A DNA stretch of 64,000 nucleotides from an uncultured Oleiharenicola sp. (GCA_964515595.1 CAZEUN010000001.1:246282-310281), one strand, 5' to 3'. Shown: positions 3,152 through 32,819, counted from the first letter of the stretch. A program made the numbers and translations. The notes: a model not told the origin generated them from the sequence alone.

Positions 3152-3222
3152 GAGGATGCGCACCGTCGCAACAGGTGCAGACAGCGCGCCGGGCGCGGGG
3201 TTCTCGAAGGAAAAGCGCGGCA

Positions 3223-5130
3223 TCATTGCGCGGGTTGGTCAAGTTGCGCCGAGAGCTGCTGCAGCCACTCCTCGATGTTCGTGTAGCCGTCATGGTCATC
3301 GTCGGCATTGGGCTTCGCGGGGATCGGCGTGGCCCAGTGCGACGGGTTCTGCGCATACACCGGCCAGCCGCCGGCTTCCGCGACGGAATTGCGCACCCGG
3401 CCCGGCCGGTCCTTCGCGACCGGAATCTTCGCCCCGCGCGCGATCTCGTCGATGATGCGACGCTCCATGGGATCGCGATCGTTTGGCCGGGCGCCGGCGG
3501 AACGCAGCACCACGTCAAAGGCCTCGCGCGCCGGCAACGGCTTGAAGCCGTCCAGGCCATGACCCTGCGCCGTCGGATCACGGTCAACCAGGTACGGCGT
3601 CAGATTGGGATCCACCAGCGGCGCCGGCGAGGCGCGTTCCCCGGGGTTATAAACGTTGTCGGCCTGGTAAATCTGCGTGCCCGCCGGCGGCTTCTGGCGC
3701 GCGATCGGGGACGCCGTCAGGCTCACCAGCGACGCGCCGTCGATGAAGGTGTTGCCCACGGCCGCCAGGTGGATCGGGTCCGACCAGTAGTCGGTGTGCC
3801 CGATCATCAGGAAGCGGTTGCGGCGGTTGTAGAGGACATTGTTCGCGAAGACGAAGTGCTTCGAATTCGCCCACGGGCCGCGCTCCAGGACGTGCGCGAT
3901 GATCGACCCCGTGAAGGAAAGCCGGCCCGCAGCCGAGGTGCCGGAGCCAAAGAGCGGCCCCATGGCGTGGCCCTGCGCGAGCGAAAGCAGATCGACACCC
4001 AATTTCCAACCCGAGCTGGCCGGGTTGCGGCCGGTGATGATCAGGCGCACTTTGAGGGACGCCAGCTTCGGCGGGATGATGAAACCCGTGGACCCGGTCA
4101 GCGACGTATAGGACACCGCGCCGGCGGCCGGCGCATACTGGTCAAATTCCTCGCTGGCCTGCAGCAACTGTCCGTCGGGATCCCGCACCTCGACCTTGAA
4201 CCTGGCGCGATCGGGTCCGGTGATGCCGCCCACGACCAGGTGCTCGTCGAGCCGGCGCGTGTCATCCGGAATGACCGGGACGATGTACTCGATCGCATCC
4301 CCCTCCGAGTCGGCCGGCACGAGTTGGTACGCACCACTCAGCGCCTGCGGGCTCGCCACCATTTCCGCCCCGGCGAAACCAAACGAGTGCGCCGTCAATT
4401 TTTCCGCCTCCAGCGGCAAATGGTGCGGGAAGGTGCCCTCGTCCACGTGGATCGCGCGGAACAGCGGCTCGGCGAACAGGCAGCGGCTGAAGGTGACGTC
4501 CTCCCAGGCGTTCCACGTGCTCGCAATTTCGTCGAGCGACCAGGCGAAGGTGCAGTGATCGAAGACGACATTGGTCAGGGTCCCGGTGCGCCCGCAACTG
4601 ACCTCGACCGCGTCGCGATTGTGCGTGTGCGGATCCGGCAGCCAGCGGTCGCCCGGGCGGATGCGCAGGTGCTCGATGAGCACATGGCTCCCCTGGACCA
4701 TCAACGACGCGCCGTGCAGCGCGATGCCCGGCGACGGTGCCGTCTGGCCCGCGAGGGTGAGATCGCCGTTCGCGATGACCAGTGTGCCGCCCAGCTCGAT
4801 CACGCCGCTGAGGTCGAACACCACCACGCGCGGCCCGCTCGCGCAAACGGCGGCGCGGAGCGATCCGGTGATCGGATCCTTGTTGTTGCCGTTGTCCGCG
4901 AGCGTCGTCACGTGGATGACGCGCGAGTTCGCCCCGAAGCCGGCGGAATTGGCCGCGCGGTCCAGACCGTAGCCGTAGACGCCCGGCAACAGTTGCGGGG
5001 CCGCGCGCAACGGCGTGAAGGCGGCCGCCCCCAGGGCTAAAACCAGCGAGAGACGCGCGGCGAGGCCGGCGGCCCGGCGCAGGCGCAACCAGCCGGCACC
5101 GAGGCAACCAGGGATCAGGATGAAATTCAT
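3223..5130 (-). CDS. PL1 pectate-lyase-like protein, paralog 1 (catalytic domain with internal insert, no C-terminal modules)
   Basis: VIHVTTLAD...GSLRAA...GPRVVVFDLSGVI, TLAGQTAPSPGI, HLRIRPGD, NRDA, FDHCTFAWSLDE, RGP, C-terminal DDDHDGYTNIEEWL. Start at MNFILIPG (5130). Confidence 0.85.
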   Translation of the reverse strand: MNFILIPGCLGAGWLRLRRAAGLAARLSLVLALGAAAFTPLRAAPQLLPGVYGYGLDRAANSAGFGANSRVIHVTTLADNGNNKDPITGSLRAAVCASGPRVVVFDLSGVIELGGTLVIANGDLTLAGQTAPSPGIALHGASLMVQGSHVLIEHLRIRPGDRWLPDPHTHNRDAVEVSCGRTGTLTNVVFDHCTFAWSLDEIASTWNAWEDVTFSRCLFAEPLFRAIHVDEGTFPHHLPLEAEKLTAHSFGFAGAEMVASPQALSGAYQLVPADSEGDAIEYIVPVIPDDTRRLDEHLVVGGITGPDRARFKVEVRDPDGQLLQASEEFDQYAPAAGAVSYTSLTGSTGFIIPPKLASLKVRLIITGRNPASSGWKLGVDLLSLAQGHAMGPLFGSGTSAAGRLSFTGSIIAHVLERGPWANSKHFVFANNVLYNRRNRFLMIGHTDYWSDPIHLAAVGNTFIDGASLVSLTASPIARQKPPAGTQIYQADNVYNPGERASPAPLVDPNLTPYLVDRDPTAQGHGLDGFKPLPAREAFDVVLRSAGARPNDRDPMERRIIDEIARGAKIPVAKDRPGRVRNSVAEAGGWPVYAQNPSHWATPIPAKPNADDDHDGYTNIEEWLQQLSAQLDQPAQ

Positions 5131-5411
5131 GTCGGGATTTCTAGGGATTTGCTGACGGGAAGGTGCTCGCCGGAGAGCGAGCGGAAAAGCGGCGGCGCGC
5201 GGTGAGAATCCGAGCGTACCTGACCACACGCCGTTCTACGATTCGCGAATCCGGCCGCTGGCCATGAAGCCAGTTGGATCGGTCAGGCGCGCGATCATCC
5301 GGGGGAACGACCAACGTGGGTTTCTTGAGGGTAAGGGGTTGCATGAGCGACCGGGCCAGCCCATCGGGGAAACCGTAAGGTAACGCCCCTGGCCGCAGTC
5401 ACTAGCGACTG

Positions 5412-5432
5412 ACGGTTAACACATGTGACCAA
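5412..5432. promoter_or_regulatory. Candidate operator ACGGTTAACACATGTGACCAA (CACATGTG palindromic core), upstream of PL1 paralog 1
   Basis: 21/21 identical to 21680-21700; intergenic. Confidence 0.7.
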
Positions 5433-5499
5433 ACCCACCGCGGTGCCGGCCGGGCGAGCCGCGCGGACGGGACTTTAAACACTCCGCCGGGCGGCAGTT

Positions 5500-5531
5500 G
5501 CCGGGCCGCGCGGGAAACCGCGCGGCCCGGC
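5500..5531. terminator. Perfect 14-bp GC hairpin downstream of PL1 paralog 2 (terminator or mRNA stabiliser; no U-tract)
   Basis: GCCGGGCCGCGCGG-GAAA-CCGCGCGGCCCGGC. Confidence 0.45.
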
Positions 5532-5590
5532 ACTCCCCCTGCCCTCGGCGGGCCGGGGCCAGGGGACTTTTCACTTGCCGCGATCGCTGC

Positions 5591-8500
5591 CTAGGGCGCG
5601 GTGACGAGCACGTCGTCGAAGTCCGCCGTCAGGCCGGACGTCATGAGTGCCGCGCCGCCGGTACCGGACGCGAACGTCGTATCGTTGGCGCGCACGAGCA
5701 GCTGGCCGTCGACATAGCCCCGCAGGCAGGTGCCGATCACTTCCAGCCGGAGCGTGTGCGGCGTGTTCAACACGACGGTGAAGGGCTCCGAGTCGAGCAC
5801 CGTGGACGTGTTGTTCACGAGTTTCTTCAGTTCGAGGACGTTGCTCTGGCCCAGCTTCAGGTAGTAGTAGTTGGTCGCGTCATTGAAGCGGGCGATCAAC
5901 CCGGCCCACTTGTTCGTCGGCAGCGAGTTCGTCGGCGTAATGTCGGCCTCGACCGATTGATTGGTGACGAATCCGCCCTGCCGCGTGCGGGAGTCGGTCG
6001 CGCCCGTGGCGCTCTGGCGGTACAGCGCTGACGCCGCCGCCCACGACCCGCTCAAGGGCGTCCAACGGCTCACGTTCCCATCATTGAAGGTCTCCGCCAC
6101 GAGCACGGCGCCATCCCGCGTCGCGCCGGCGCTCACGTTGTCGTATTTCACGTCCGCGCGGTACATGAGCAGCCCGGCCTTGCCCGGAGGCAGGGGCGTG
6201 CTGTCCGTGGTCTGCACCTTGAGGACGCCGTCGACGTAGAGCTCCAGCGTGGTGGTCGGATAGCCGGAGACGACAAATCGCACGGTGTGGACATCCCCGG
6301 GATTCGTGGTGACGTTCACCACGGAACCGAGCGTCGTGTAGACGGTGTTGAGCATTTTTTTGATCTCCACCGTCGAACCGGTGATCTTCGCGTAGTAGTA
6401 ATTGTCGACGCCGGTGTAGCGCGCGCACAGGCCAAACCAGGCCCCGGGCGCGGCGGGATCGAAGCCCACCAGTTTCGCATCGGCGGTCACGGAGTGATCG
6501 TCGCTGAAGCTGTTGTCGAGGATCGCAAACGGCGCGCTCGCCGCGAACTGGGTTTGCTCGTAGACCTTGTTCCCCGTCTCGGCCGTAACCTGCCAGGTGC
6601 CGCCGGTGCCGCCGCTCGTGGCCGTCCAGCCCGTCGTGGCGCTGTTCTCGAAATCGTGGAAGGTCGTCGCGCGCGGCACGAGGGCGACCCGGAAGTCGTC
6701 GTACACCCCCGAGGTGTTGCTGCGACTAAAGAGTCCGGCTTTGCCCGCGCCCAGGCCCGGTTGCCACACGTTGGGCAGACACGCGACGCCGTTCACGAGG
6801 ATGGCCGTCATGTTGCCCCGCCGCCGCACGGTCGCGTTGAATGGCACGCCCGCGCCGCCGGAATAGACACCAGACGCCACCGTTTGGGGCGAGCCGCCAT
6901 TCGTCACGCTGCTGACCTCGACGTCACCCGCGGTATTGAAGGTCACATAATTGTAGTTGCTCGAATTGACGTAATTATAGACGAGGCCGACGCGGTTGCC
7001 GGTGCCTCCCCAGGTCGTGGTCAGCGTGGCGCTGACGGAGTAATCCGTCGCCCAGGTGCCGCCGTCGTAGAGCGCGATGGCCGCCGTGGTGTTTACCGTT
7101 TGCTTATAGTTATGCGGGGTGGTGTTGACGACCCAGGCTCCGGAAAGCACCGACCAGTTGGGCGCCACGGTGGTGGTCTCGTCGAAAGTCTCCGTGCGCA
7201 CCACCGCTTCCGCCGTCGAGCCTTCCACCTGCGCGGCCAGTTGCTGCAGCCACTCCTCCATCACGGTGTAGCCGCTGGCCAACACGGTCGTGGCATTGCC
7301 GGGCACCGTCCAAGTCGCCGTGTTTTGTTGGGTTCCGTCCGTGGGCCAGCCGCCGGCATCGGCCACGGAATTCACCAGATTGCCCGGGCGGTTGGCCCGG
7401 ACATTGATGACCTGCGCCTGGGCCAGATTGGTCATGACTCCCCGTTCCGCCGAGTCGCGCTCGGCCGGGCGGGCGCCGGCGTAAAGCACCCCATCGGCGA
7501 AGGCCTGGTTCGGTGACACCGGGACGAAGCCCGCCAAGCCCGCCGGCTCCGGCAGCGTGGGATTGGAAGTGACGAGGCGATTGTCGCTGCTGAGCGGGCT
7601 GGCAAACGCGCCATACTCCGACGGGTTCTCGGCCCCACCCTTGTTCCAGTCATTGTTGCTCACGTGAATCTGTGCGAGCGTCCCTGTACTCGCCAGACCC
7701 GTGTTATAGTAGAGCCCGGTATCGCCGCCCCAGGATTTCCCCTCGATGAAACGGTTGCCGACGATCTCCGCCTTCATGCTGGAGATCGCATGAGGGCTCT
7801 CCGCCTCATGGCCGAGCATCATGAAACGGCTCAGCCGGTTATAGAGCACGTTGTTCGCGAACAGGAATTGTTTCGAATAAACCCAGGGGCCGCGTCCCAG
7901 GAGGTGGGCAAAAACGGAACCCGTGAAGCTCAGCCGCCCGCCGGTGTCACTCCCCCAACCCAGGAGCGGGCCCATCGCGTGGTTCTGAATGAGGCCGATC
8001 TGGTCGATGCCAACACTGACGGCGGCACCGGGCTGGCCGAGCAGCACGACCCGGATGCGATAAGGCAGGTAGTCCGCCGTGGAGCCGGGAATCGTGAAGT
8101 GCGGACGAGTGCCGGCAATATGCTCCCCGATGAAATCCACGCTGTCGTAAGTTTGGGCGGGGTTAAAATCCTGGCTGGTATAAGCCGGGGTGCTGGCGGT
8201 GCCCGCGTAGACCTCAACGCGAAAGGAACCGCGGCCCGGACCCGTGATCCCGGTGATCAACGGCACGTTGCCGGTCCGGTTGGTGGCGGCGGACTTGATG
8301 TTGAAGCAGTACTCAATGTAATCGCCGGTATGCCCGGAAACGAGGTGATAGTTGTTGCCGGAGCCAATCCCCTTGGTGGGGTCCGCTGACGGCGTATAGG
8401 TCGTTCCGCTCGTGACGATCGTCTGGACCACGGCCGGCTCGGTGCTGGACCGCGGAAAGGATTCGGCCTGCAACGGGACGTTGGCCGTCTTCGGCGGAAG

Positions 8501-9223
8501 GGTGCCGTCGTAGAACTGTCCCTCGTCGATGTGGATCGAATAAGCGAGCGGCTCGACGAAGGCGCAGCGGTTGAAAGTGACGCCGTCCCAGTTGTTCCAG
8601 AGCTGCACGGATTCATCGAGCGTCCATTGAAACGTGCAATGATCGATGACAATGTTCTCAAGTGAATTGGCGCCCGTGGCTCCCTCGATCCGGATTGCAT
8701 CCCGATTGTGCGTGGGGATGGCGTTCCAATCGTCACCCGGCCGGATCCGCAGGTGCTGGACCAGCACATTGTCCGCGCTGATGACGAACGACCCTCCCTT
8801 GATCGTGATGCCGGGCCAGGGTGCCGTCTGGCCGGCAATGGTGCAATCGGCCTTCGAGAGACTCAGATCGCGCTTCAACGTGATCGTGCCACTCTTCCGG
8901 AATACGATCACCCGGGCACCCGTGGTGGTCCGGGCGAGCACCTCGCGGAGCGAATTCGCGATCGTCGACTCACCGGCGCCGTAGTCGTCGAGGTTCGTCA
9001 CCTCGATGACTTCGAAGTTGCCCTTGAAGCCGGCGGCGGCGGTCGAGGTTCGCTCCAAGCCATAACCGTATACGCCCGGCAGCAGTTGCAGGGCCTGCAG
9101 GCGAAGGCCGCCCAGCAGGAGGAGGGCGAAGGCCGAAATTGCGGAAACAGCTCGGAGAAGTTTTCCGAACGGGGCATGGCAAACTACCGGGCGGGCGGAG
9201 CCCGCGGAGGTCAGATTTTTCAT
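5591..9223 (-). CDS. PL1 pectate-lyase-like protein, paralog 2 (internal insert plus three C-terminal ConA-like/CBM66-DUF1080-like beta-sandwich modules)
   Basis: Signal peptide; QLLPGVYGYG; TIAGQTAPWPGI; HLRIRPGD; IDHCTFQWTLDE; RGPW. Three repeats of (E/H)(T/D)F(D/E/N)...W....G.W...NYY...G..GL....(Y/F)D(D/N). Confidence 0.85.
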   Translation of the reverse strand: MKNLTSAGSARPVVCHAPFGKLLRAVSAISAFALLLLGGLRLQALQLLPGVYGYGLERTSTAAAGFKGNFEVIEVTNLDDYGAGESTIANSLREVLARTTTGARVIVFRKSGTITLKRDLSLSKADCTIAGQTAPWPGITIKGGSFVISADNVLVQHLRIRPGDDWNAIPTHNRDAIRIEGATGANSLENIVIDHCTFQWTLDESVQLWNNWDGVTFNRCAFVEPLAYSIHIDEGQFYDGTLPPKTANVPLQAESFPRSSTEPAVVQTIVTSGTTYTPSADPTKGIGSGNNYHLVSGHTGDYIEYCFNIKSAATNRTGNVPLITGITGPGRGSFRVEVYAGTASTPAYTSQDFNPAQTYDSVDFIGEHIAGTRPHFTIPGSTADYLPYRIRVVLLGQPGAAVSVGIDQIGLIQNHAMGPLLGWGSDTGGRLSFTGSVFAHLLGRGPWVYSKQFLFANNVLYNRLSRFMMLGHEAESPHAISSMKAEIVGNRFIEGKSWGGDTGLYYNTGLASTGTLAQIHVSNNDWNKGGAENPSEYGAFASPLSSDNRLVTSNPTLPEPAGLAGFVPVSPNQAFADGVLYAGARPAERDSAERGVMTNLAQAQVINVRANRPGNLVNSVADAGGWPTDGTQQNTATWTVPGNATTVLASGYTVMEEWLQQLAAQVEGSTAEAVVRTETFDETTTVAPNWSVLSGAWVVNTTPHNYKQTVNTTAAIALYDGGTWATDYSVSATLTTTWGGTGNRVGLVYNYVNSSNYNYVTFNTAGDVEVSSVTNGGSPQTVASGVYSGGAGVPFNATVRRRGNMTAILVNGVACLPNVWQPGLGAGKAGLFSRSNTSGVYDDFRVALVPRATTFHDFENSATTGWTATSGGTGGTWQVTAETGNKVYEQTQFAASAPFAILDNSFSDDHSVTADAKLVGFDPAAPGAWFGLCARYTGVDNYYYAKITGSTVEIKKMLNTVYTTLGSVVNVTTNPGDVHTVRFVVSGYPTTTLELYVDGVLKVQTTDSTPLPPGKAGLLMYRADVKYDNVSAGATRDGAVLVAETFNDGNVSRWTPLSGSWAAASALYRQSATGATDSRTRQGGFVTNQSVEADITPTNSLPTNKWAGLIARFNDATNYYYLKLGQSNVLELKKLVNNTSTVLDSEPFTVVLNTPHTLRLEVIGTCLRGYVDGQLLVRANDTTFASGTGGAALMTSGLTADFDDVLVTAP

Positions 9224-9441
9224 CGGGAATCAGGGAGGGAGGGTTGTCTAGCGGTGCTGCCGACCGGAAAATTATTCACGCGCGCTCCGTCCACCGGCCA
9301 GCCGGCCACGACGGGCATTGGGGTGCGGGGTCCGCGGGCGTGAAGCGGGAATCAGCGCCGAACCGTTCAGGCCGGCGCCGTTCCGTCAGTCATGGATGAA
9401 CCGGGAAAAACATTCCGACCAGGGTCGAAATGGAATGGAGG

Positions 9442-12180
9442 TCAGGGCGAAGTCACGATCACGTTGTCGAAGTCCGCCGCGACGTAGTTGGTGCCCAGCG
9501 CCGCCTTGCCGGCGGGCAGGCCGGCGCCGCTGTTGCTGGTGTCGGTTGCCTCCACCATCAGCACGCCGTTGACGTAACCGCGCAGCTGAACCGGGTTCGT
9601 GCCCGACACCTCCAGGCGCAGGTTGTACCATTCGCCGAGGGTCACGGGAGTCGACGCGTGAGCCGCCGGGGTGAACTCGGTCGGCACGCCAGCGGCCAAT
9701 TTCTTCAATTCCACCGTGTTCGCGTCCGCGCGCAGGAGGAGGTAGTAGGCATTCGACGCATCCGAATGACGCGCATAAACGGCCGCGAAGCGATTCGTGC
9801 CGCTCTCGGCCGCGATCTTCACGTCCGCCTGCACCGTCTGGGAACTCACGTTCGTGCCGGTCACCGTGCGGCCCGACACGGAGGCCTGGCTGGTGAACTG
9901 GTAGACCCCGCCGGCGGCCTGCCAATAGGCGGTCGGCGCATCGGGCGTCCAGCCCGCCGTGCTGTTGGTGTCAAAGTCGCTGAGCGATTGCTGCACATCG
10001 GTCGCGTACGGGCTCGCGAAAACATCGTCGAAGCGCGCCTCGGCGTAGTTGGTCCCGACTGCGGCGAAGCCCGGCGGGAGCGGATTGCTGTCCGTGGCGC
10101 TGAGGTTGACCACCGCGCTCGTGCTCAGGTTGGTGACTTGCGCCGCCAGCGACGCGGCCGCGCCGGGAGCGGGATTGTTGACGGAAATGCGCACGGCGTA
10201 GGTCGTGCCCGTGGTGATGCTGAAGTTCGCCTCGGCGAGCGTCGTGATCAAAGTGGAGCTCGCGCCCTGGGTGATCTTCTTCAGTTCCACCTTGGTGGTG
10301 GAACCGTTCCGGAGGGTGACGTAGTAGGCATTGAACGGATCCTGGTAGCGCGCGTAAACGCGCACGAACCCGTTCGCATTGGAGAAGTTCACCGGCTTCA
10401 CCTTCGCCTCGACCACCTGGTTGAAGAAATTCGTGTTGATCAGAAAGGCCTGCGCATCGCCGCCGGTGTACGTTTGCGCCAGCTCCTTGGTGCCGGTCGG
10501 GACCGACCAGGCGCCGGAAACATCATCCGGATACCAGCCTCTCATGTCGTCGTCGCTGAACGTGTCGAAGGTCGCGATGCGCTGGTCGCCCTCGATGTTC
10601 CAAGCCGCATAATGGAGTGCCTCCTCCAGGTTGGTGTAGCCATCGCCATCAGGATCCTGATCCGGATTGGCTGGCAGGACAAAGTTCGCGGTTCTAACGA
10701 GATCGACCGGCGCCCACGGATTGGTCGCGGGGTCCAATCGCTCAACGAACGAGTTCGACCGCGCCTGAATGTTGCCGAAAAGAGCGGCGTCAAGCGGGTC
10801 GCGGCGCGCCGTGAATTTGCCGGCGTTCGATACCAGCTTGGCCTCCAGCACCGTCCGGTCGGCGGCCAGCGTCGATCCGGGTACGACGCGCGTCGACCAG
10901 GGCGTCCACTTCCAGTCACCGGAATTGGCATGCGGGTCGGTGGTATACTCCTTGGTGACCGGAGGAGTCGTCGAGCGGTCGCGGAAAAACGACGAGTCAT
11001 ATTGGTTCGTCACCGGCGACGGGAACCAGCCCGCGGAAATCGGCGGGGTCGTGGAAGAAGCAAGATTCAGCAGGCGGTTTTCGGACAGATAAGTGGTCAC
11101 GTTCGGAGTGCTGTTATCGATCACGTAGAAACCTTGGGCGGCGTTACCCGTGCCTGTTTCCGGGATGGTCTGGTCACCATTGGGCCCATGGAGCGTATAG
11201 GGCTGGCGGAGCACCACGTTGCCGACGGCGGAAACCGTCAGGTCGAACAAGTCATCTCCCGCATCAATGGTGCCGATATATATGGCCCGCTTCTCCCCGT
11301 ATCTGGGGTTATAGATGAAGTTGTTCGCGATTTGCACACCGCGGGCCATGTCGCGAATGAGCGGATTCCGCTCCAAGTTGAAGGCCATCACGTTTCGGAT
11401 CAGGGAAACGTTGTCGGTGTGCGGTCCCACGACCGGTCCATAACCGTGCGCGCCTCCGTTGGGATGACCGGCGTAAATCACCGGTTGCCCCACTAACGAG
11501 CGAGAAATCGTGACGCCATCGACCTCCCCATAGGGCAGAGGTCCGTCGACGCCACCGGTGTCTCGTTTGTCGTCGGGGTCACTCGACCAAAATGACACCA
11601 CTTCGTCCGTGGACCAGCTGCACGAGACGTGATCGAAGACCACGTTCGACACCGTTCCGCTCGATGGCGTAATCTTGATGCAGTCGCGGTTGTCGATTCC
11701 CGCGAGTTTCCACTGATCGGTGACATTCGCATGCAGGTAGTTTCCCGGGCGGATCGCGAGGTGTTGCACCAGCACGTCGTGGCCCAGCACCATGATCGCG
11801 CCGTTGCGCAGCGTGATTCCCGGCCAAGGGGCCGTTTGGCCGGCGATAGTCAGGTAGCTGTGGTTGGCCCGGACGATCAAATCGCCCTGCAGCTGAATCA
11901 CCCCCGAAGTGTCGAAGACGATTACCGTGGGCGTATTGGCCAGGCTCGAGTGCTCCACACCATATCGCAAGGTGCCCGGCACCAAGCCGGCATTGTTCAA
12001 GGCGGGGTCATCCAGTCGGGTCACTCGATAGACGTTGGTGGCGCCGCGGGCGGCCGCGGACTGGCTACCGAAGCCAACAATGCCGGGGACGACCGGGATG
12101 GCTTGAAGGGATTGAAGGGAGACCAACAGCAAGCCGAGCGCGGGAAGCATTCGGCTGCGCATTGTACAGTGCGTTTTCAT
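9442..12180 (-). CDS. PL1 pectate-lyase-like protein, paralog 3 (canonical uninterrupted beta-helix plus two C-terminal ConA-like modules)
   Basis: TIAGQTAPWPGI; NRDC; FDHVSCSWSTDE; GHPNGGAHGYG short loop; RNPLIR (RxPxxR); DPDGDGYTNLEE. Start at MKTHCT (12180). Confidence 0.87.
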   Translation of the reverse strand: MKTHCTMRSRMLPALGLLLVSLQSLQAIPVVPGIVGFGSQSAAARGATNVYRVTRLDDPALNNAGLVPGTLRYGVEHSSLANTPTVIVFDTSGVIQLQGDLIVRANHSYLTIAGQTAPWPGITLRNGAIMVLGHDVLVQHLAIRPGNYLHANVTDQWKLAGIDNRDCIKITPSSGTVSNVVFDHVSCSWSTDEVVSFWSSDPDDKRDTGGVDGPLPYGEVDGVTISRSLVGQPVIYAGHPNGGAHGYGPVVGPHTDNVSLIRNVMAFNLERNPLIRDMARGVQIANNFIYNPRYGEKRAIYIGTIDAGDDLFDLTVSAVGNVVLRQPYTLHGPNGDQTIPETGTGNAAQGFYVIDNSTPNVTTYLSENRLLNLASSTTPPISAGWFPSPVTNQYDSSFFRDRSTTPPVTKEYTTDPHANSGDWKWTPWSTRVVPGSTLAADRTVLEAKLVSNAGKFTARRDPLDAALFGNIQARSNSFVERLDPATNPWAPVDLVRTANFVLPANPDQDPDGDGYTNLEEALHYAAWNIEGDQRIATFDTFSDDDMRGWYPDDVSGAWSVPTGTKELAQTYTGGDAQAFLINTNFFNQVVEAKVKPVNFSNANGFVRVYARYQDPFNAYYVTLRNGSTTKVELKKITQGASSTLITTLAEANFSITTGTTYAVRISVNNPAPGAAASLAAQVTNLSTSAVVNLSATDSNPLPPGFAAVGTNYAEARFDDVFASPYATDVQQSLSDFDTNSTAGWTPDAPTAYWQAAGGVYQFTSQASVSGRTVTGTNVSSQTVQADVKIAAESGTNRFAAVYARHSDASNAYYLLLRADANTVELKKLAAGVPTEFTPAAHASTPVTLGEWYNLRLEVSGTNPVQLRGYVNGVLMVEATDTSNSGAGLPAGKAALGTNYVAADFDNVIVTSP

Positions 12181-12360
12181 CAGGTTATGGGGTTGACTGC
12201 GAGTTGGTGCTGCCGATGAAAAACAATTCCTTGGTGACCTGATCGGAAATGGAGGGCCGCTGCTTGCCGGCGAGCCGTCGGGCGCATGCGGTCGCCATCC
12301 CCGGCCCCGCGACCAGCGCGGGCCCTCCATTGATTTTTTTATGGCGCGATGCTCATGCGA

Positions 12361-15300: not shown

Positions 15301-17982
15301 GTTCGTGACGACGACGGAATAGTCAGCCGCCGCGGAGGTTTGCACGGCCGGCAGGGTCAACGACGGCGCCGAGGGCGCGCCGAGCGCCACGCCGTTGCGC
15401 TGCCACTCGTACGTGAGTTCCGGGGTGCCGGTGGCCGCCACCGTGAAGGTGACGGTGTCGCCCGAGGTCACGGTCTGCGAGGCCGGTTGCGTGGCGATCG
15501 CCGGTTCATGGGTGAGCACCGTGACGGTGAAATCGCGCGTGCTGGTGTTGCCCGCCGCGTCCGTTGCCGTGACGTGCACGCTCGTCACGCCCGGCGCAAA
15601 CAGGCTGCCCGAGGCGGGCGTGACAGTCGGCGTCACATTGCCATCCACCGCATCGAGCGCGGAAACATCGAAGGACACGCTCGCGCCGTCGGGGCCGGTC
15701 GCATCGGTCGTCAGGTCGCCGGGCGCCGTGATGACGGGCGCGAGGATGTCGGTCCCCGTCACCGTGACATCGTCCACATTGGGCAGTCCGGCCGCGGTGC
15801 CCTGGATGCTGACCACATTATTGGTGCCGCCGGCCAGGGTCGCGGGGACATCCAGCAGAACCCAGGCACTCGCGCCGCCCGTCGGGGCGAACGTGACGCC
15901 CTGCGCCGCTCCATTCACGACCACGGTCGCGCTGCGCGCCGCGCCGTCCAGCGCGTAGCGAATCCGCAGATACCGGGCGCCGCCCGTGCCGCCGTCGACC
16001 TTGTAGAAAGTCACCGTGCCGGCGCCGGGCGCGGTCACGTACCCGGTGCCATCCGGGCCGGCGGTGCCGGTCACGATGACACTGCCGCCTCCGAGCTGGG
16101 CGAACTCCGCCTGGTAATTGTTGCCGGCCACCGCCGTGCCCTCGAGGGCGTCCGACAATTGCTGCAGCCATTGCTCGATGTTGGTGTAGCCATCGTGGTC
16201 GTCATCGTCGTTCGGATTCGCGGGCAACGTCCAGGTCGCGGGATTTTGCGCATAGACCGGCCAGCCGCCCGCCTCGATCACGTTGTTCTTGGTCTTGCCC
16301 GGACGCTGCAGGAGCGCGGGCTGCGTGGCGCCCACCGCGATGTCATTCATGACGCGGACTTCCATGATGTCGCGATCGTTCGGGCGCGCGCCCACGGAAA
16401 GGAGGACGGCCCGATAAGCTTCAGTGGACGGCAGCGGCATGTAGCCATCCGTGCCGTGGCCACCCTCGATCGGGCTGCTCGTGACGCGGTAAGGTTCAAG
16501 CAAGGGGTCGTAAAGCGGCGAGGCATTGGTACGATCGCCCGGATCGTAAGTGTTGTCGGTTTCGAACAGCCGCGAGCCGGCCGCAATTTTCTGGCGCGCG
16601 ATGGCGGGCCGGGCGGACGTGCCCATGTTCTGGCCATCGATAAACGTGTTGCCGACCATCGTCGCGTTCATCGGATCGGGCCAGTAGTCGGTGTTGCCCA
16701 TCATCGCGAAGCGGTTGCGCCGGTTATAAAACACGTTGTTCACCATCTGGAATTGCTTGGCGGCGACCCAAGGCCCGCGCTCGAGGATGTGCGCGATGAC
16801 GTTATTATTGAACGACAGGCGACCGGTACCTTCCTTGCCGGAACCGAAGAGCGGTCCCATGGCGTGGCCTTGGGAGAACGAAAAGAGATCAATGCCGATC
16901 TTCCAGCCGGTGCTGGCCGGATTCCGCCCCATCACGGTTACCCGGACCTTAAGCTCGGTGGTGCCGAGAGGGACCGTGAAGCCGTTGATATCGGTGCGCC
17001 CCACGTAGGAAACTGCCTCAGACGTCGGAGAGTACTCGTCGAACACGATGCTTTCCTGGAGCGATGTGCCGTCCATCGTCCACACCTGCAGCTTGAACCG
17101 GGCACGGTCGGGACCGGTGATGCCTCCCAGCACGATGTGTTCCTCGGTAAATTGATTGGTGGTCGGCAGCGTCTTGACGATGAAATCGAGCGTGGCGCCG
17201 TCGCCGGACGCTTCCCATTCGCGATACGAACCGCCGATGGCGGCGGGGTGTGTGACCGGGACCGGATCGCCGAAGCCCGTCGGCGTGACCGCGAGATCCT
17301 CCACCGCCGGCGGCACGTTATTGGGGAAGGTGCCCTCATCCAGGTGAATGGAGCGGAAAAGCGGCTCAGCGAAGATGCACTTGTTGAAAGTCACGTCTTC
17401 ATATGCATTCCACGTGCTGGCCATCTCATCGAGGGACCACGCGAACGTGCAGTGATCGAACACGACATTCCGGATCACCGTCGAGTTGCCGGAGTCCGCG
17501 GCCACGGCGTCACGGTTGCTGGTGTTGGGATTCGGCAGCCAGCGGTCGCCGGGGCGAACCCGCAGGTGCTGGATGAGAACGTTGCTCGTGGCCACGACGA
17601 GCGGCTGGCCGTGCAACGCGATGCCCGGCGACGGCGCGGTCTGCCCCGCGATGGTCAGGTTGGGTGACCGGATCGCGAGCACCTTCTGCAGTTCAATGAT
17701 CCCGCTGACGTCGAAGACGACGACGCGCGCGCCGCTGACCTTCACCGCGGCGCGCAGGGAGCCGGGCGTGGGCGTCGTGTCGTTCCCGTTGTCCGCGAGC
17801 GTCGTGACGTGAACGATCTTCGAGGTGGCCCCGAATCCCGCGGTGTTGCTGGCGCGGTCGAGGCCGTAGCCGTAGACTCCGGGGAGCAGTTGCGGGGCGG
17901 CTTGGAGGTTGGACAGTCCGAGCGAAAGCGCGGCGAAAGACAGGGCCTTCGTGATCACGCGCAGGATTTTGACAGATTTCAT
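12361..17982 (-). CDS. Giant multimodular PL1 pectate-lyase-like protein, paralog 4: PL1 with insert, CBM35/CBM6-like, HYR, Ig, MBG-like, LNGN-repeat solenoid, 3x bacterial Ig, 2x ConA-like
   Basis: PL1 motifs as in paralog 1. YQAE...G.GYV...RYA...VNG...PTGG...W...PNVD (CBM35-like). APVITAP...ASGSLF..G...TATDAAGN (HYR). TQPASQTV...TFTV...YEW (Ig). Three P(T/I)V.(I/L)TAP...D..GV..VQF..G..LG.E....P(F/Y)...W.T repeats. Confidence 0.87.
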   Translation of the reverse strand: MKSVKILRVITKALSFAALSLGLSNLQAAPQLLPGVYGYGLDRASNTAGFGATSKIVHVTTLADNGNDTTPTPGSLRAAVKVSGARVVVFDVSGIIELQKVLAIRSPNLTIAGQTAPSPGIALHGQPLVVATSNVLIQHLRVRPGDRWLPNPNTSNRDAVAADSGNSTVIRNVVFDHCTFAWSLDEMASTWNAYEDVTFNKCIFAEPLFRSIHLDEGTFPNNVPPAVEDLAVTPTGFGDPVPVTHPAAIGGSYREWEASGDGATLDFIVKTLPTTNQFTEEHIVLGGITGPDRARFKLQVWTMDGTSLQESIVFDEYSPTSEAVSYVGRTDINGFTVPLGTTELKVRVTVMGRNPASTGWKIGIDLFSFSQGHAMGPLFGSGKEGTGRLSFNNNVIAHILERGPWVAAKQFQMVNNVFYNRRNRFAMMGNTDYWPDPMNATMVGNTFIDGQNMGTSARPAIARQKIAAGSRLFETDNTYDPGDRTNASPLYDPLLEPYRVTSSPIEGGHGTDGYMPLPSTEAYRAVLLSVGARPNDRDIMEVRVMNDIAVGATQPALLQRPGKTKNNVIEAGGWPVYAQNPATWTLPANPNDDDDHDGYTNIEQWLQQLSDALEGTAVAGNNYQAEFAQLGGGSVIVTGTAGPDGTGYVTAPGAGTVTFYKVDGGTGGARYLRIRYALDGAARSATVVVNGAAQGVTFAPTGGASAWVLLDVPATLAGGTNNVVSIQGTAAGLPNVDDVTVTGTDILAPVITAPGDLTTDATGPDGASVSFDVSALDAVDGNVTPTVTPASGSLFAPGVTSVHVTATDAAGNTSTRDFTVTVLTHEPAIATQPASQTVTSGDTVTFTVAATGTPELTYEWQRNGVALGAPSAPSLTLPAVQTSAAADYSVVVTNAFGSVTSVPATLTVNKVPVTVAFGQLAFSYSGSAKPATVTTVPDGLPVTITYNGSTTPPTLPGTYTVVATVTDPNFAGSITTTLTILPDILVNHAPTLNGAVGGSIQVLLPEDITLNGNAAVDRQLLVPGTPTVQLNGHPTYGGVSDGPGAATPTTHRITLNGNARLGSLLRHVDPIALPVVSAPPAPTGTRNVSINSTGQGAGDFATLRDLTLNGNVGIVAVPPGTYGRFTANGGSNFQLGIAGATTPAVYNLQGLTLNGNRALEVVGPVVLTLASGTSFNASLGNAAHPEWLEVRVASGGITLNGNVACYGSIIAPQGTVIVNGSTQLAGHVVADRFTINGNGTLANPSDQTAPIVAITAPAAAATVNGTVEVLATATDNAGVAAVQFQLDGAALGLEDMTAPFGVSWPTLATAPGSHVLTAVARDFEGNFTTSAAVQVTVADQIPPTVALTAPAAGTSLGGVVTLSATAADDVAVTGVQFLLDGANFGPELATPPYATNWNTASTAPGAHTLAAIARDAAGHATTSAAVAITVSDQHAPSITLTSPADGAKVGGVVTLTAESSDDVGIAGVQFKVNGTALGAEVTAPPYTAAWNTVPLTETSYALTAVARDAAGHLTESAPVTVSVANAIFDTFESGSTAAWTPDGGTWTLTEEPGTHTWRQSDKTSVAIRATRDVNWADTLVEADVKLLSVSGSNRFFGVVARRQGLNDYYYLVLRTNNTIELKKIVNNTAANLVNPVAFTVAPNTTYRLALEVVGTTLKGYVNGQLKLQASDATFASGAPGLLTYFTEVAFDDVHLDPTPISPVLATDDFEHGATAWVAEAGTWSVESANSQVYRQADPAAPARAVTGQPGWADQIVELDVTPRSFGQTGGWAGFLFRYVDATHHYAVALRDGNKLELLKVEGAAVTTLATATTPVTAGTVVALRLNAVGNSFKVYRDGNLLLQAVDDAYPAGQLVLATAGAAADFDDVSVIAP

Positions 17983-18102
17983 GGGGCAGCGAAATTCGAC
18001 GATGGGTGCCGGGGGGCGTCCCTGCCCTCCCGGCCTCTATTTTTGCCGACGCCGCGGCGCCAGCGGCAGGCATGGGACGCCTGCCGTTGCCCTGCGCGGG
18101 GG

Positions 18103-21100
18103 TTAGAAGTCGAACGTGTTGCGAATCGACCAGCTCTGGGAGGCGCGAATGCGCCAGGCATTCACGGATCCGTCCGGCTGCGCGCTCACCGGGATCAGCT
18201 CATCGCCGACGCCGATGTTCGCGACGTTCAACTGGACGCCCCAGGTGAAGTGCTTGAGCTTGCGGCGGTAGCCGACATGGGCGTCGAAGTTGGTGATGCT
18301 CGGCGCATAGTAGGGATGCTTGATGTCGGGAACGATCCCGAACACCGGGTCGTCGATGACGGGGAAGCCGTAAGCGAGCCTGCCCTCCCAGCGCACGCCA
18401 CCGCCGATGCTGAAGCCCTTGAGACGGCCTTGGGTGAAGGTATAATTCGTGAGTGCATTCCAGCGCCACTCGCGGAGCTCATTCGCCGGGGCGTTCTCGT
18501 TCGCGAGGTAAGGCAGGAGCTGGCGGTAGTTGGTCTTCCAGGTGTCCGCCAGGGTCGTGCTGCCGGTTTCCGCCACGAACAGCGCGCCAGCCGGGCCATC
18601 GACCACCGGTTTCAGGTCTTCGAAGACGTGACGCAGGTTAAGCGCGACATTGCTGCGGAAGGCGCGGGCGTGGTTGCCATTGATGGCGAAGCGCCAGTTC
18701 CGCGTCGGGTTGAAGACTGCCTCGAATTCCTCGCCGGTGGAAACGACGTCCGCCGTCTCAAACACCTCGCTGTTGCGGCTGTCGCTCGTCAGCGTGGCGA
18801 CGATCTCACCGGTGACCGGATTCACCGTTGTGTTCTCCGTGAAGCGGAAGGTTTCGCGGAGTTGGGAACCGATCGGGCCGTCATACCAGGCGTTCCACGC
18901 GGCGACGCCGGTGGGGTTGGCGTTGTTCCGGCCCTCGAGATTCTCGGTGCGCACGTTTCTCATCATCGTAAGCAACTGGCCTTTCGGGGTGCTCAGGCCC
19001 GAGACCAGGGTCGAGGAGAGGCCCGACGTGGTCTTGTAGTGGCCGAAGCGCAGGACAAACTTGCCTTCGAAGGTGCTGAGCCGGACGCCGTATTCCTTGG
19101 TGTGGCCCGTCTCGGCGTCCATCAACTGGTCCCAAATGTCGTAGCGCTGGCCCGCGGGCCTGAAGTTGTCCGCCTCGTTGTAGGAAACGCTGAGTTCGGT
19201 GCCCCACGGCAGGTGCTTCTTGATGAAGTTCGGCGAATGCAGGACCAAGCCGTAGTTGAAGCTCGTCTGCGACTGATCCATCACCGGCAGCGGCTGAAAA
19301 TTATCGCCGACGATTGCCTTGCCGGTGTCGGGATCGATGGGCGCGGTGCCCGCATTGTAGGTCCGGACGTCGTCCTTGCGCCAACCGAGGGTGCTGACGA
19401 GGTTGCGGTCCAGCCAGAAGCTCTGCACGACGCCGACCAGGGAATCGACCTTCTCGCGGGTGTAGGTCACGTATCGGCGGGTACCGTCGATGTCGTGGTC
19501 GCCGTTGGTCTCGATGCCGAACGTGCGCTCCGACCAGGTGCCGGGCGTGGTCGAGCCGGCGGCGGGCGCGTTGTAGAAGAGGATCTTCGCGGAATCCATG
19601 TTGCTCGGCCACTGGTTGGTCGGAACCGAGACCGCGCCGGTGACGGGCGTGGCCGACGAGGCGACGCTGGGCCCGAGGTAGCGAATGATCGGCAGGCCGC
19701 GACGGCCGGAGCCGTTGTTGTCGACGATGCCCCACTGCGCCAGCGCGAAGTCCGCGCCCGGCACCGCGGCGAAGTTGCCGTCGGAAATGAACGCGGTGTT
19801 CTCCAATTTGGTATACGTGCCGGTGAAACGGTGCTCGCCCAGCAGGCGCCCGAGCCACGGACGGCTGCCGACCTTCCGCAGGTCGAGGTTGTAATAGGCG
19901 GTGGCGCGAGCGGTGTCGCGATCGGCGTTGCGCAGGTTGGCCTTGCTGTAAGCGACCGTGAATGGACGGCCGAAGTTCGGATTCGCCAGGCCGTTCGGCA
20001 GCTTTGTCTCCATATCCACGCGCAGGGTGTAGCCGCTGATGATGCTATCGAGGCCCATGGTGTTGCCGTTGTCCACGCTCTCGCGATTGGCGGCGAGTTC
20101 GAAGCCCGCCTTGCCGTCGAGCAGGCGCTGCTCGAGTGTGACGTTGTAAGTGTGGAAGCGGGCCCACTCGAATTTGTTCGGGCCATGCAACATGTGGTGG
20201 TAGAAGTCGAAGATCGCGGGGTCCGTGATCTGCGTGCTCTTCCAGAAGCCAGCCGTGATGTCATTCGCGTGCAGCAGGTTGTTCAGGATGTACGCGGAAT
20301 CGCGCAGGCCGCGCATTTCCGTCTGCACCTGCGTGCTCACGCCCGTGATGTTGTGGCCGGGGTAGTTGCCCGCGCGCAAACCCATCACGTCGGACCCGGG
20401 AATGCCCAGGTTCGGCGTGGTGCTGTTCGGATCGTTGTAGACGAGGACCATCTGGCGGCTGCCACCACCGATCGCCCCGATCTGCGCGCTGAAGATGCGC
20501 CCGGTGTTCCCGGGAGTGCCAAGCGAGGTCGGGGTGCCGTTCGCATTGAAGGCCGTGACCGGATACCCTAGCGCGGTGTTGCCCGCGCCGAGCATGCTGC
20601 CGGTGTTCGTGTTGGGATCCCAGACCGGGCGCCCGGCATCCCACCAGAAGGTATAGGCGTCGCCGGGCGGGCGGGATTCGGGCGCGTTCCCGGTCGTTTC
20701 GCCCCGTTCCGCGGAGGCGCGGATCGTGGTGTTGGTGTAGGGCCGCCAGGTGCCGGTGAGGAACAGGCGCTTGTTGCGGCGCCAGGCTTCCTCGATCTTG
20801 TAATGGCCGTCCTCGTAAACCGAGGCCACGCGCAGGGCCAGCTTGTTCTTCACCAGGACCTCATTGTGGTCGATGGTGCCGCGGAAGGAGCCAAACTGGT
20901 CGGTCCGCATCGTGATCTCCGTCGCGCGGCGGTTGGTCCGGGCGACGGCAAGGGAGTAGTTGATGATGCCCGAGGGACTGCCCAGGCCGAACAGCATGGC
21001 GTTCGGTCCGCGGCTGATTTCGACGCGGTCGGTGGCGTAATTGTCGAAGGGGATGCCGGTGATAAAGAAATCGCGGGCGACGTCGGCCGAGGTGAGGCCG

Positions 21101-21573
21101 CGCACGCGGGTGCTCGGGGATGCGCTCGCGAATGCACCGTCGTAGTCGGCCTCGTTGCCGTTCGGGTTCGCCACCGTCCCCGCGTCGGAGAAGTTGCCGC
21201 CGGCGCCGTTGACCTCGGTGCCGAGCGTGTAGACGAGCAGGCCGTTGAGATCGGTCGCCCCGATGTCGTTCATGAAATCCTTCGTCACGACGGAAATCGA
21301 CGAGGCGATGTCCCGGAGATCCGTCCGCAGCCGCGTGCCGGACTGCGCGGTCGAGGCGAGATAACCGCTATCCGCGTCGGCGTTCACTTCGAACGGCGAC
21401 AGGACCAGGGTCTCATTGGCGCGGGCAATGGTTTTCTTTTCTTTGCCGTCGGATGCCGCCGGCGCTTGCTGGGCGCTCAGCGCGCCCGTCAGCAGAGTGG
21501 CGAGCAACAGGGAAACGGCGCGGGTCCTCGTGGTCCGCGACCGTCCGGTGGGGTACAGGTCAGGTTGGTTCAT
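18103..21573 (-). CDS. TonB-dependent outer-membrane receptor
   Basis: ETLVLSPFEV, GYLA..AQSGTR, plug motifs (RVRGL, DRVEISRGPNAMLFGLGSPSG.IN), terminal aromatic residue (TFDF). Start at MNQPDLY (21573). Confidence 0.93.
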   Translation of the reverse strand: MNQPDLYPTGRSRTTRTRAVSLLLATLLTGALSAQQAPAASDGKEKKTIARANETLVLSPFEVNADADSGYLASTAQSGTRLRTDLRDIASSISVVTKDFMNDIGATDLNGLLVYTLGTEVNGAGGNFSDAGTVANPNGNEADYDGAFASASPSTRVRGLTSADVARDFFITGIPFDNYATDRVEISRGPNAMLFGLGSPSGIINYSLAVARTNRRATEITMRTDQFGSFRGTIDHNEVLVKNKLALRVASVYEDGHYKIEEAWRRNKRLFLTGTWRPYTNTTIRASAERGETTGNAPESRPPGDAYTFWWDAGRPVWDPNTNTGSMLGAGNTALGYPVTAFNANGTPTSLGTPGNTGRIFSAQIGAIGGGSRQMVLVYNDPNSTTPNLGIPGSDVMGLRAGNYPGHNITGVSTQVQTEMRGLRDSAYILNNLLHANDITAGFWKSTQITDPAIFDFYHHMLHGPNKFEWARFHTYNVTLEQRLLDGKAGFELAANRESVDNGNTMGLDSIISGYTLRVDMETKLPNGLANPNFGRPFTVAYSKANLRNADRDTARATAYYNLDLRKVGSRPWLGRLLGEHRFTGTYTKLENTAFISDGNFAAVPGADFALAQWGIVDNNGSGRRGLPIIRYLGPSVASSATPVTGAVSVPTNQWPSNMDSAKILFYNAPAAGSTTPGTWSERTFGIETNGDHDIDGTRRYVTYTREKVDSLVGVVQSFWLDRNLVSTLGWRKDDVRTYNAGTAPIDPDTGKAIVGDNFQPLPVMDQSQTSFNYGLVLHSPNFIKKHLPWGTELSVSYNEADNFRPAGQRYDIWDQLMDAETGHTKEYGVRLSTFEGKFVLRFGHYKTTSGLSSTLVSGLSTPKGQLLTMMRNVRTENLEGRNNANPTGVAAWNAWYDGPIGSQLRETFRFTENTTVNPVTGEIVATLTSDSRNSEVFETADVVSTGEEFEAVFNPTRNWRFAINGNHARAFRSNVALNLRHVFEDLKPVVDGPAGALFVAETGSTTLADTWKTNYRQLLPYLANENAPANELREWRWNALTNYTFTQGRLKGFSIGGGVRWEGRLAYGFPVIDDPVFGIVPDIKHPYYAPSITNFDAHVGYRRKLKHFTWGVQLNVANIGVGDELIPVSAQPDGSVNAWRIRASQSWSIRNTFDF

Positions 21574-24123: not shown

Positions 24124-24190
24124 AAAACCCCGGGATAAACGCGACGAGGACTTGCCCGCGGCGTCGAAACCACCTCTAAATAAGATGCCC

Positions 24191-25343: not shown

Positions 25344-25358
25344 GCTCACTTGTGCGAC
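25344..25358. promoter_or_regulatory. Operator variant (reverse complement GTCGCACAAGTGAGC) upstream of DUF2264 #1
   Basis: Nearly identical to the 26676-26690 site. Confidence 0.5.
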
Positions 25359-25424
25359 TCTGGGTTGAATGGCGTCGGGCTGGACGCCATCCGATCGTCC
25401 CCCAACTCCATTCCGCCAATTCCT

Positions 25425-26645: not shown

Positions 26646-26675
26646 GTTCGCCCGGGCCGCGGATCGGCCCGGCGC

Positions 26676-26690
26676 AATCACATGTGCGAC
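26676..26690. promoter_or_regulatory. Operator AATCACATGTGCGAC upstream of the dehydrogenase/transporter operon
   Basis: Perfect CACATGTG core; reverse complement GTCGCACATGTGATT. Confidence 0.65.
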
Positions 26691-26774
26691 TGTGCCTCGC
26701 GTGGCGGATTTCACCCCCAAGCCCAGCGTGAGCCCATTCCCCCGGCCATCCGATGCCCGGAAACCATTTGCTCC

Positions 26775-31614: not shown

Positions 31615-31619
31615 CGCCC

Positions 31620-32804: not shown

Positions 32805-32819
32805 TTTTTTCGCCGGCTT

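Follow-up and report, generated by a model that had tools for sequence, protein, structure and literature searches.

A 64,000-nt stretch of DNA from an uncultured Oleiharenicola sp. (GCA_964515595.1 CAZEUN010000001.1:246282-310281; the window, from whose first letter all coordinates are counted) carries four genes for proteins related to polysaccharide lyase family 1 (PL1), here named Ly1 to Ly4, next to a single gene for a TonB-dependent receptor (TBDR), and this array is the subject of our analysis. The GC content of the window is ~0.66 and true genes are distinguished by a GC content at third codon positions (GC3) above 0.8; the receptor and the four lyase genes are intact minus-strand open reading frames (ORFs) with high GC3, in agreement with the original prediction, made from the sequence alone, of four co-oriented lyase paralogues behind one receptor. 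The receptor gene (18103-21573, minus strand) encodes 1156 aa with a Pfam Plug domain and has no SusD partner. Downstream of it, all on the minus strand, lie Ly4 (12361-17982; 1873 aa), Ly3 (9442-12180; 912 aa, or 902 aa if started at the ATG at 12150, as in the database gene call), Ly2 (5591-9223; 1210 aa) and Ly1 (3223-5130; 635 aa). Ly1 is a PL1 subfamily 2 (PL1_2)-like catalytic module that contains an inserted domain and has no terminal appendage; Ly2 combines such a module, with an insertion of 180 aa, with three modules resembling carbohydrate-binding module (CBM) family 66; Ly3 has a catalytic module free of the insertion and two CBM66-like modules; and Ly4 joins an insertion-bearing catalytic module to a CBM35, HYR, immunoglobulin-like (Ig) and MBG domains, a beta-solenoid, three Big_7 domains and two CBM66-like modules. 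The order of transcription of the wider cluster is PL35-like lyase, TBDR, Ly4, Ly3, Ly2, Ly1, M14 peptidase and glycoside hydrolase family 36 (GH36) protein; the original prediction had the sizes and appendages of the paralogues right and gave their order in plus coordinates, the reverse of transcription.

The catalytic domains are homologous, as had been predicted: pairwise identity is 58% between Ly1 and Ly4, ~40% between Ly1 and Ly2, and ~32% for Ly3 over the N-terminal half, and DNA repeats between the paralogue genes confirm the relationship. The sole significant relative of solved structure is PfPL1 (PDB 9buj), which is matched by Ly1 (E 7.6e-19), by Ly3 (E 8.7e-11) and by the family profile (E 5.3e-49), and the NCBIfam PelZ model matches all four lyases at E 1e-31 to 1e-35. 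An AlphaFold2 (AF2) model of mature Ly1, built with 55 homologues, is a right-handed parallel beta-helix with a predicted local distance difference test score (pLDDT) of 95, and a Foldseek search with this model returns 9buj first (E 2.8e-18, 16% identity in the structural alignment) and then VexL, Jun a 1 and B. subtilis Pel. PfPL1 is the first PL1 subfamily 2 structure, with Arg220 as the proposed proton abstractor and a C-terminal pseudo-EF-hand calcium site (PMC11229556). R373 of mature Ly1 is the arginine that aligns with PfPL1 R220, and all 55 sequences have it; it stands in the context E-R-G-P in Ly1, Ly2 and Ly4 and E-R-N-P in Ly3. All four paralogues also have D129, D147, H148, D156, E157, H184, H344 and N386/387 (numbered as in mature Ly1). 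Because the catalytic arginine and these acidic and histidine residues are retained, all four lyases look catalytically competent. A pseudo-EF-hand of the form DxDxDGYTNxEEWL ends the catalytic module, reading DDDHDGYTNIEEWL in Ly1 and Ly4 and DPDGDGYTNLEE in Ly3. The Ly2 version is degenerate and has lost acidic residues (TTVLASGYTVMEEWL; window 7230-7290, minus strand; residues ~640-665). On these grounds Ly1 to Ly4 are best described as distant PL1 subfamily 2 relatives, whose close homologues are all annotated as hypothetical.

The domain listing of the original prediction overlooked a second domain inside three of the catalytic modules. Between the conserved motifs IHxDEG and GHAMGP, Ly1, Ly2 and Ly4 carry 155-180 extra residues that Ly3 does not have, at 3970-4440 in Ly1 (mature residues 187-343), 7982-8527 in Ly2 and 16867-17340 in Ly4 (all minus strand), the last of which aligns with the insertions of Ly1 and Ly2. 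The family profile aligns PfPL1 in two pieces, residues 33-192 and 194-311, which puts the insertion precisely in the loop at PfPL1 192-194. In the AF2 model the Ly1 insertion forms a separate beta-sandwich, whose best Foldseek match is MiXBM (7ehg, CBM84; TM-score 0.81, 22-23% identity), followed by the CBM of a Paenibacillus xanthan lyase (6f2p). The family profile reaches 7ehg weakly (E 1.9e-4), and the isolated insertion, searched as a single sequence, finds nothing meaningful in the PDB by phmmer and no Pfam match. A profile built from the three insertions and run against 1.84 billion representative proteins returned only 16 proteins at E<1e-10. About a dozen of these carry the module at residues ~210-400 of homologous lyases, and the remaining matches are a repeat protein with 16 short stretches, one match at residues 725-842 and two fragments of ~150 aa; weaker matches are terminal CBM6/35-like modules on GH28, GH26, GH5 and PL6-type enzymes. 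The modelled fold thus points to a CBM6/35/84-like beta-sandwich spliced into the helix, which most resembles CBM84. A review lists 7EHG (MiXBM) under the xanthan lyase MXL, assigns its xanthan-binding module to CBM family 84, and describes CBM84 modules as increasing enzyme activity on a branched acidic polymer (PMC10881899). The C-terminal boundary of the insertion, H344, lies 29 residues before the catalytic R373 in mature Ly1, a spacing we estimate at roughly one helical coil, and for this reason we infer that the module would stand on the rim of the substrate groove and could aid substrate recognition. The insertion of Ly2 has an extra segment of ~25 residues.

The phylogeny of the catalytic domains separates the four paralogues. 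In a neighbour-joining tree of 145 catalytic domains, with the insertion columns excluded and bootstrap values taken from an 86-sequence subset, the 51 insertion-bearing proteins form one clade (bootstrap 100). Within it, Ly1 stands with 12 orthologues (100) and Ly4 with two (99), in two sister clades (100). Ly2, on a deep branch of the insertion clade, has a protein of a related genome (P0182, locus L009; bootstrap 100, 44% identity) as its only partner, and its identity to each of the other members is ~40%. A separate clade, which has no insertion, holds Ly3 (99); its members commonly share the Ly3 architecture of a catalytic domain followed by two DUF1080 modules. Named homologues of the insertion clade all come from Lacunisphaera, Opitutaceae or Verrucomicrobiota, so that the clade is rare, monophyletic and named only from Verrucomicrobiota. 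Ly1 is 73-79% identical to 13 orthologues elsewhere, and identities to orthologues of Ly1 and Ly4 together range over 69-79%; since Ly1 and Ly4 are only 58% identical to each other, their duplication is old, and the tree shows that it predates the split from the Lacunisphaera-like relatives. Long near-identical DNA repeats of the kind left by recent duplication or gene conversion were not found between the paralogues, whose homologous blocks are 60-78% identical. The shared mature N-terminus QLLPGVYGYGL had been noted in Ly1, Ly2 and Ly4 and is indeed present there, with VVPGIVGFG in its place in Ly3. The local duplication that had been drawn from it does not follow: in many genomes the family as a whole has QLLPGVYGYG as its consensus, GYG occurs in PfPL1 as well, and so the motif is no sign of local duplication, and the tree places Ly3 in another clade and Ly2 on a deep branch.

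Related genomes, whose loci are given here as L002 to L015, show which parts of the array are constant. The TBDR has orthologues of 72-80% identity directly upstream of Ly4 in L003, L009 and L011, so that the receptor-lyase linkage, a check proposed with the original prediction, recurs in at least three related genomes. A Lacunisphaera metagenome-assembled genome (L003 and L002) has the arrangement 2-hydroxyacid dehydrogenase (2HADH)-DUF2264-LacI / PL35-like-TBDR-Ly4 ... Ly4-Ly1-M14, with neither Ly2 nor Ly3; L009 reads TBDR-Ly4-Ly1-(Ly2-like, 44% identical)-M14-Melibiase; L011 reads TBDR-Ly4-Ly1-(1005-aa paralogue); another Opitutaceae locus, L006, has a three-gene array with M14; and the more distant L012 reads LacI-TBDR-M14-DUF4185-unknown-lyase with two CBM35 modules. 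Ly4 orthologues of 1875-1877 aa occur in L009 and L011. The LacI orthologue of L003 is 91% identical and occupies the same position, and in L012 and L013, too, related lyases are flanked by LacI genes; the PL35-like lyase is syntenic in L003 (76% identity). M14 accompanies the lyases in five other loci (L002, L006, L009/L010 and L012), even where lyase identity has fallen to 47%, and in L009 it is followed by a gene of the Pfam family of the GH36 protein. In the window, Ly3 and Ly2 stand between Ly4 and Ly1. Ly3 is absent from L002/L003, L009 and L011, and in the relatives that do not have it, L009 and L011, the variable slot holds other paralogues. A protein of L006 (5554-9822) joins a Ly3-type catalytic domain to an MBG-solenoid-Ig-2xCBM66 tail of the Ly4 type, so that accessory modules have evidently been exchanged between the two lyase clades, as judged from this fusion. 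Taken together, the array is a conserved core of receptor, Ly4, Ly1 and M14 with variable extra paralogues, and not a recent fourfold local duplication.

Three further observations concern the same segment. The GC content is slightly lower in Ly3 and Ly2 (0.63 and 0.64, against 0.67-0.68; segment 5131-12360). None of the relatives examined has the Ly3-Ly2 segment between its Ly4 and Ly1 genes. Ly2, Ly3 and Ly4 have in common a 75-nt homologous block at their 3' ends (repeat family D5), through which recombination could have taken place.

The terminal appendages agree with those listed in the original prediction, now identified by Pfam matches, a CBM66 profile match, phmmer matches to CBM35 structures and a model of the solenoid. 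The seven C-terminal concanavalin A (ConA)-like modules (three in Ly2, two in Ly3 and two in Ly4) are mutually alignable, with 20-26% identity among themselves and to CBM66, and their profile matches the B. subtilis levanase CBM66 (4b1l) over its full length (E 4.3e-11). Pfam PF06439 matches one of them at E 2e-8 and is also recorded for Ly3-type relatives, so on the present alignments the modules, which in Ly4 occupy 12364-13410 (minus strand), are assigned to the DUF1080/PF06439 family. A DUF1080 protein from Thermogutta has been reported as an endoglucanase active on xanthan (PMC10881899), and by analogy a catalytic role of the CBM66/DUF1080-like modules is conceivable. Residues 620-745 of Ly4 (15748-16164, minus strand) are a CBM35, matched by phmmer to 2w87 (E 4.5e-10), 2vzp (E 2.5e-9) and also 2w46, and relatives of this region carry Pfam CBM_35/CBM_6. 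The closest of these structures are uronic-acid-binding CBM35s, which is a lead only; a literature search returned nothing on the uronic-acid specificity of CBM35. The HYR, Ig, MBG and three Big_7 domains of Ly4 are Pfam matches. Its region ~984-1243 (14254-15033, minus strand) is modelled by AF2 as a beta-solenoid with regular short strands (pLDDT ~85-92). We considered this solenoid as a second catalytic beta-helix and rejected the idea, as Foldseek returned weak matches to ice-binding-protein solenoids and no catalytic helices.

The receptor and its neighbours extend the unit beyond the 3223-21573 interval on both sides. The TBDR plug matches Pfam PF07715 (E 1.9e-6, above cut-off) and PDB 3qlb (E 7.9e-12 over residues 27-303), and the plug and first barrel strands resemble FptA/FhuA-type receptors; the protein has a signal peptide, ~850 residues after the plug, no PF00593 match and a C-terminal Phe (...NTFDF). 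No gene in the window matches a SusD-like Pfam family, and with the SusC/SusD pair of Bacteroidota-type polysaccharide utilisation loci (PULs) missing, the locus is PUL-like in logic only. Directly upstream of the receptor stands a second lyase type unrelated to Ly1 to Ly4, a protein with DUF4962 and Heparinase II/III C-terminal domains (21713-23968, minus strand; Pfam PF07940 and PF16332), whose closest solved relative is the PL35 chondroitinase 9o3q (E 6.7e-16); this neighbour suggests that the target polymer may hold more than one kind of uronate linkage. Its signal peptide (23950-23968, minus strand) contains ...RLFLGC..., a possible non-canonical lipobox of a kind not seen in the PL1-like lyases. 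Divergent from the lyase operon is a LacI-family regulator (24185-25219, plus strand) with the N-terminal helix-turn-helix sequence MPMSEIRVTQLEIARAARVH. Downstream of Ly1, and translationally coupled to it by an overlap with its stop codon (ATGA), starts an M14 (CCP-like) zinc carboxypeptidase with a signal peptide (1895-3226, minus strand; Pfam PF00246 and PF18027; solved relatives 4b6z and 3k2k), a peptidase with no obvious role in a polysaccharide locus. Its stop in turn overlaps (TGATG) the start of a GH36/Melibiase-like alpha-galactosidase gene, also encoding a signal peptide (3-1895, minus strand), which extends past the left edge of the window, and the operon therefore continues outside it.

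Beyond the regulator, on the plus strand, lies a sugar-catabolic operon (25350-42120) that encodes two DUF2264 proteins, a 2-hydroxyacid dehydrogenase, two SSF transporters, two GFO/IDH/MocA oxidoreductases, a xylose-isomerase-like TIM barrel, a carbohydrate esterase family 15 (CE15) protein, a PF12876 protein, GH109 and GH1, and is followed by a GH88/105 gene on the minus strand. The set formed by the two DUF2264 genes, the GFO/IDH/MocA pair and the TIM-barrel gene presumably resembles the oxidative pathway of 3-keto-glycoside cleavage. A literature search returned nothing on DUF2264.

We regard it as reasonably probable that these genes form a SusD-less, TBDR-linked PUL with exported uronate lyases in a Lacunisphaera-like groundwater Opitutaceae host. 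Ly1 to Ly4 would most likely cleave a uronic-acid-containing polysaccharide by Arg-mediated beta-elimination, and the receptor would import the resulting unsaturated oligosaccharides. The PL35-like lyase, GH88/105, CE15, GH36, M14 and the divergent sugar-catabolic operon would then complete the breakdown, with the adjacent LacI regulator probably controlling the breakdown genes. Nothing in the locus singles out pectin as the target polymer. The CBM84-like insertion, the similarity to VexL, the groundwater habitat and the PL35-like neighbour make an acidic exopolysaccharide of microbial or algal origin at least as likely as pectin. The terminal modules (CBM35, CBM66-like, Ig and solenoid) vary from one paralogue to the next and are shuffled between genomes.

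Several results weigh against the polysaccharide-utilisation reading. None of the four lyases matches Pfam PF00544 at E<=0.01, and Pfam returns no match in any of their catalytic regions. The PelZ scores of 109-122 bits compare with an equivalog cut-off of 840, so the lyases are PelZ relatives and not PelZ equivalogs, and with the missing PF00544 match this makes the family assignment remote; the family name PL1 given in the original prediction stands as a relationship, through 9buj and PelZ, but only as a distant one. The second PfPL1 arginine (Arg235, PMC11229556) was not placed, as neither the chain index nor a constant offset gives Arg at both 220 and 235, and where the insertion stands with respect to the groove has been deduced from sequence spacing. 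The classical pectin genes GH28, CE8, CE12 and kdu/uxa are absent within the 64 kb, and in the more distant parts of the insertion clade the genes stand as orphans, with no receptor nearby. With regard to expression, the intergenic gaps of 120-460 nt contain GC-rich hairpins that would allow separate transcripts, a terminator-like hairpin with a T-run lies at 9432-9411 (minus strand), 10 nt past the Ly3 stop, and no shared palindromic (LacI-type) operator was found in seven intergenic regions. The array may thus be read as several transcription units. Finally, a search of sequencing runs found the sequence in four groundwater metagenome DNA runs only and in no RNA runs.

The site at which the lyases act bears on the alternative that survives best, although we consider it unlikely: a periplasmic "selfish" mode, in which the lyases never leave the periplasm and the large receptor takes up long oligosaccharides or polymer to be cut there, so that no export to the outside would call for an explanation. 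Sec-type (type I) signal peptides are predicted on all four lyases, with cleavage sites of the A-x-A type. Inspection by eye found no PEP-CTERM, LPXTG or type IX secretion system (T9SS)-like tail and no lipobox at the cleavage site in Ly1 to Ly4, and Pfam gave no T9SS or PEP-CTERM match in the lyases, so that both statements of the original prediction on signal peptides and sorting tails were upheld. The C-termini read ...LDQPAQ, ...DDVLVTAP, ...DNVIVTSP and ...DDVSVIAP, the last three being the conserved end of the CBM66-like module. Type I signal peptides with neither sorting tail nor lipobox would suit periplasmic proteins, VexL, a structural relative, is a periplasmic depolymerase according to the title of the Foldseek match, and Ly1 has no terminal binding modules. 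However, Ly2 to Ly4 carry 2-10 binding or spacer modules, as is typical of enzymes acting on insoluble or polymeric substrates outside the cell, and an enzyme of 1873 aa whose solenoid and Ig region resemble a stalk is unlikely to reside in the periplasm. Substrates of type II secretion have no linear sorting tail, the textbook case being the PL1 pectate lyases of Dickeya, which are secreted by this route. The exit from the periplasm, called unexplained in the original prediction, is hence not anomalous: a protein with no such tail is what is expected of a type II substrate or of a periplasmic resident. By analogy, an extracellular location via type II secretion would fit the four lyases; no type II secretion system (T2SS) genes were found within the 64-kb window.

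A bolder proposal, which we hold only tentatively and think doubtful as a whole, concerns the insertion clade (Ly1, Ly2, Ly4 and ~50 relatives). It would be a new lyase subfamily in which the CBM84-like module serves as an integral wall of the active-site cleft and the pectate-lyase scaffold has been retargeted away from pectin, to an acidic exopolysaccharide of bacteria or algae that is branched (xanthan-like or rich in galacturonic or glucuronic acid), with M14 as a true partner in the pathway. The peptidase would, for example, strip the polymer or its oligosaccharides of substituents made of amino acids or peptides.

It is improbable that the array arose by local tandem duplication of a single lyase gene followed by sub-functionalisation through the gain of appendages. 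The sister relationship of the Ly1 and Ly4 clades and the adjacency of these genes in L009 and L011 do make one tandem duplication likely, and the homologous CBM66-like 3' ends (family D5) could mediate recombination. But the Ly1/Ly4 split is old (58% against 69-79% to orthologues elsewhere), Ly2 is ~40% identical to all others, Ly3 lies in the insertion-less clade and is missing from relatives that have another paralogue in the slot, Ly2 and Ly3 have the lower GC, and the N-terminal motif is family-wide. Nearly as poorly placed, and a little less probable still, is the idea that the lyases remodel an acidic exopolysaccharide or capsule of the organism itself, in the manner of VexL or AlgL-type enzymes, and do not serve nutrition. 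In favour of it, VexL has one of the closest folds, a glycosyltransferase cluster adjoins one distant member of the family (L015), and classical pectin genes are missing from the locus; yet the repeated tight linkage to TBDR, LacI, SSF transporters, GH88/105 and catabolic oxidoreductases argues for catabolism, and the window holds no glycosyltransferase or export genes. That the beta-helix domains are non-catalytic binding or adhesin modules, as the missing Pfam pectate-lyase match and the many adhesin-like modules (HYR, Ig, MBG, solenoid) might suggest, is very improbable given a catalytic Arg and acidic/His set invariant in 55 homologues including the four paralogues, and given that Ly1 is a bare catalytic module.

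Comparison with known systems places the array, in the polysaccharide-utilisation reading, within a familiar design. Like the PL1_2 enzymes PfPL1 (9buj), BT_4115/4116/4119 from the homogalacturonan PUL of B. thetaiotaomicron, and Dickeya PelZ, the lyases combine a right-handed beta-helix with a C-terminal helical meander and a pseudo-EF-hand, and they share the N-terminal (P)G..GYG motif and a catalytic Arg in the context (E/S)R(G/N/T)P. The homogalacturonan PUL of B. thetaiotaomicron has three PL1_2 enzymes (PMC11229556) and resembles the present locus in having several PL1_2-type paralogues in one receptor-linked cluster; unlike it, the locus here has no SusD and no pectin accessory genes. 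The array differs from known PL1_2 systems in the insertion carried by three of the four lyases, in its CBM66-like and CBM35 appendages and in its Verrucomicrobiota host. The inserted domain has its best structural counterpart in CBM84 (MiXBM, 7ehg; Paenibacillus xanthan lyase, 6f2p), but CBM84 modules are terminal on PL8, GH9 and GH5 enzymes, whereas here the module is internal to a PL1-type helix. BsCBM66 of the levanase SacC (4azz/4b1l) is matched over its full length by the module profile, and in the present locus tandem copies occur on lyases. Blanvillain et al. in 2007 reportedly described "CUT loci" of Xanthomonas that have no SusD and combine a TBDR, secreted enzymes, an inner-membrane transporter and a LacI-type regulator, the enzymes being exported by type II secretion. 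These loci resemble the present one in the kinds of gene that are clustered and differ in phylum and enzyme families. The PL1-type beta-helix is shared, at a greater distance, with VexL (6fi2; E 1.1e-7 by Foldseek, 6.9e-11 by profile), a depolymerase of the Vi antigen, a poly-alpha-1,4-linked N-acetylgalactosaminuronic acid (GalNAcA), which unlike the proteins of the array as we read it is periplasmic, single-domain and encoded in a capsule export locus. VexL acts on a bacterial acidic polysaccharide by a two-Arg, metal-independent machinery as proposed for PfPL1 (PMC11229556).

The placing of several lyase paralogues beside an import receptor is thus known; what is new is a rare clade with a CBM-like domain inside the catalytic helix, the CBM66-like arrays, the shuffling of modules and the conserved M14 partner. 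A literature search returned nothing on Opitutaceae pectate lyases with TonB receptors, nor on the insertion clade, CBM66-like arrays, shuffling or the M14 partner. In soil, freshwater and groundwater, Verrucomicrobiota play a major but poorly characterised part in the degradation of complex acidic polysaccharides, and their carbohydrate-active enzymes (CAZymes) are mostly annotated as hypothetical. Receptor, lyases, M14 peptidase and regulator form a compact and conserved unit in this locus, which offers a concrete set of enzymes for expression, which may reveal a new PL1 specificity and a substrate range altered by domain insertion and by module shuffling between tandem paralogues. With its general architecture being familiar, the finding is useful rather than surprising.

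A few minor features of the window complete the description. An Rfam scan of the whole window gave no matches, hence no riboswitch or leader, and the 460-nt spacer between Ly2 and Ly1 contains no ORF and no Rfam match. A scan of the window for promoters and terminators gave counts not above those of shuffled sequence; the sites that follow the stops of Ly3 and M14 are the only ones suggestively placed. Beyond ~44 kb the window holds housekeeping genes. Past the Ly2 stop (5500-5545, minus strand) lies a GC hairpin of 13 bp.

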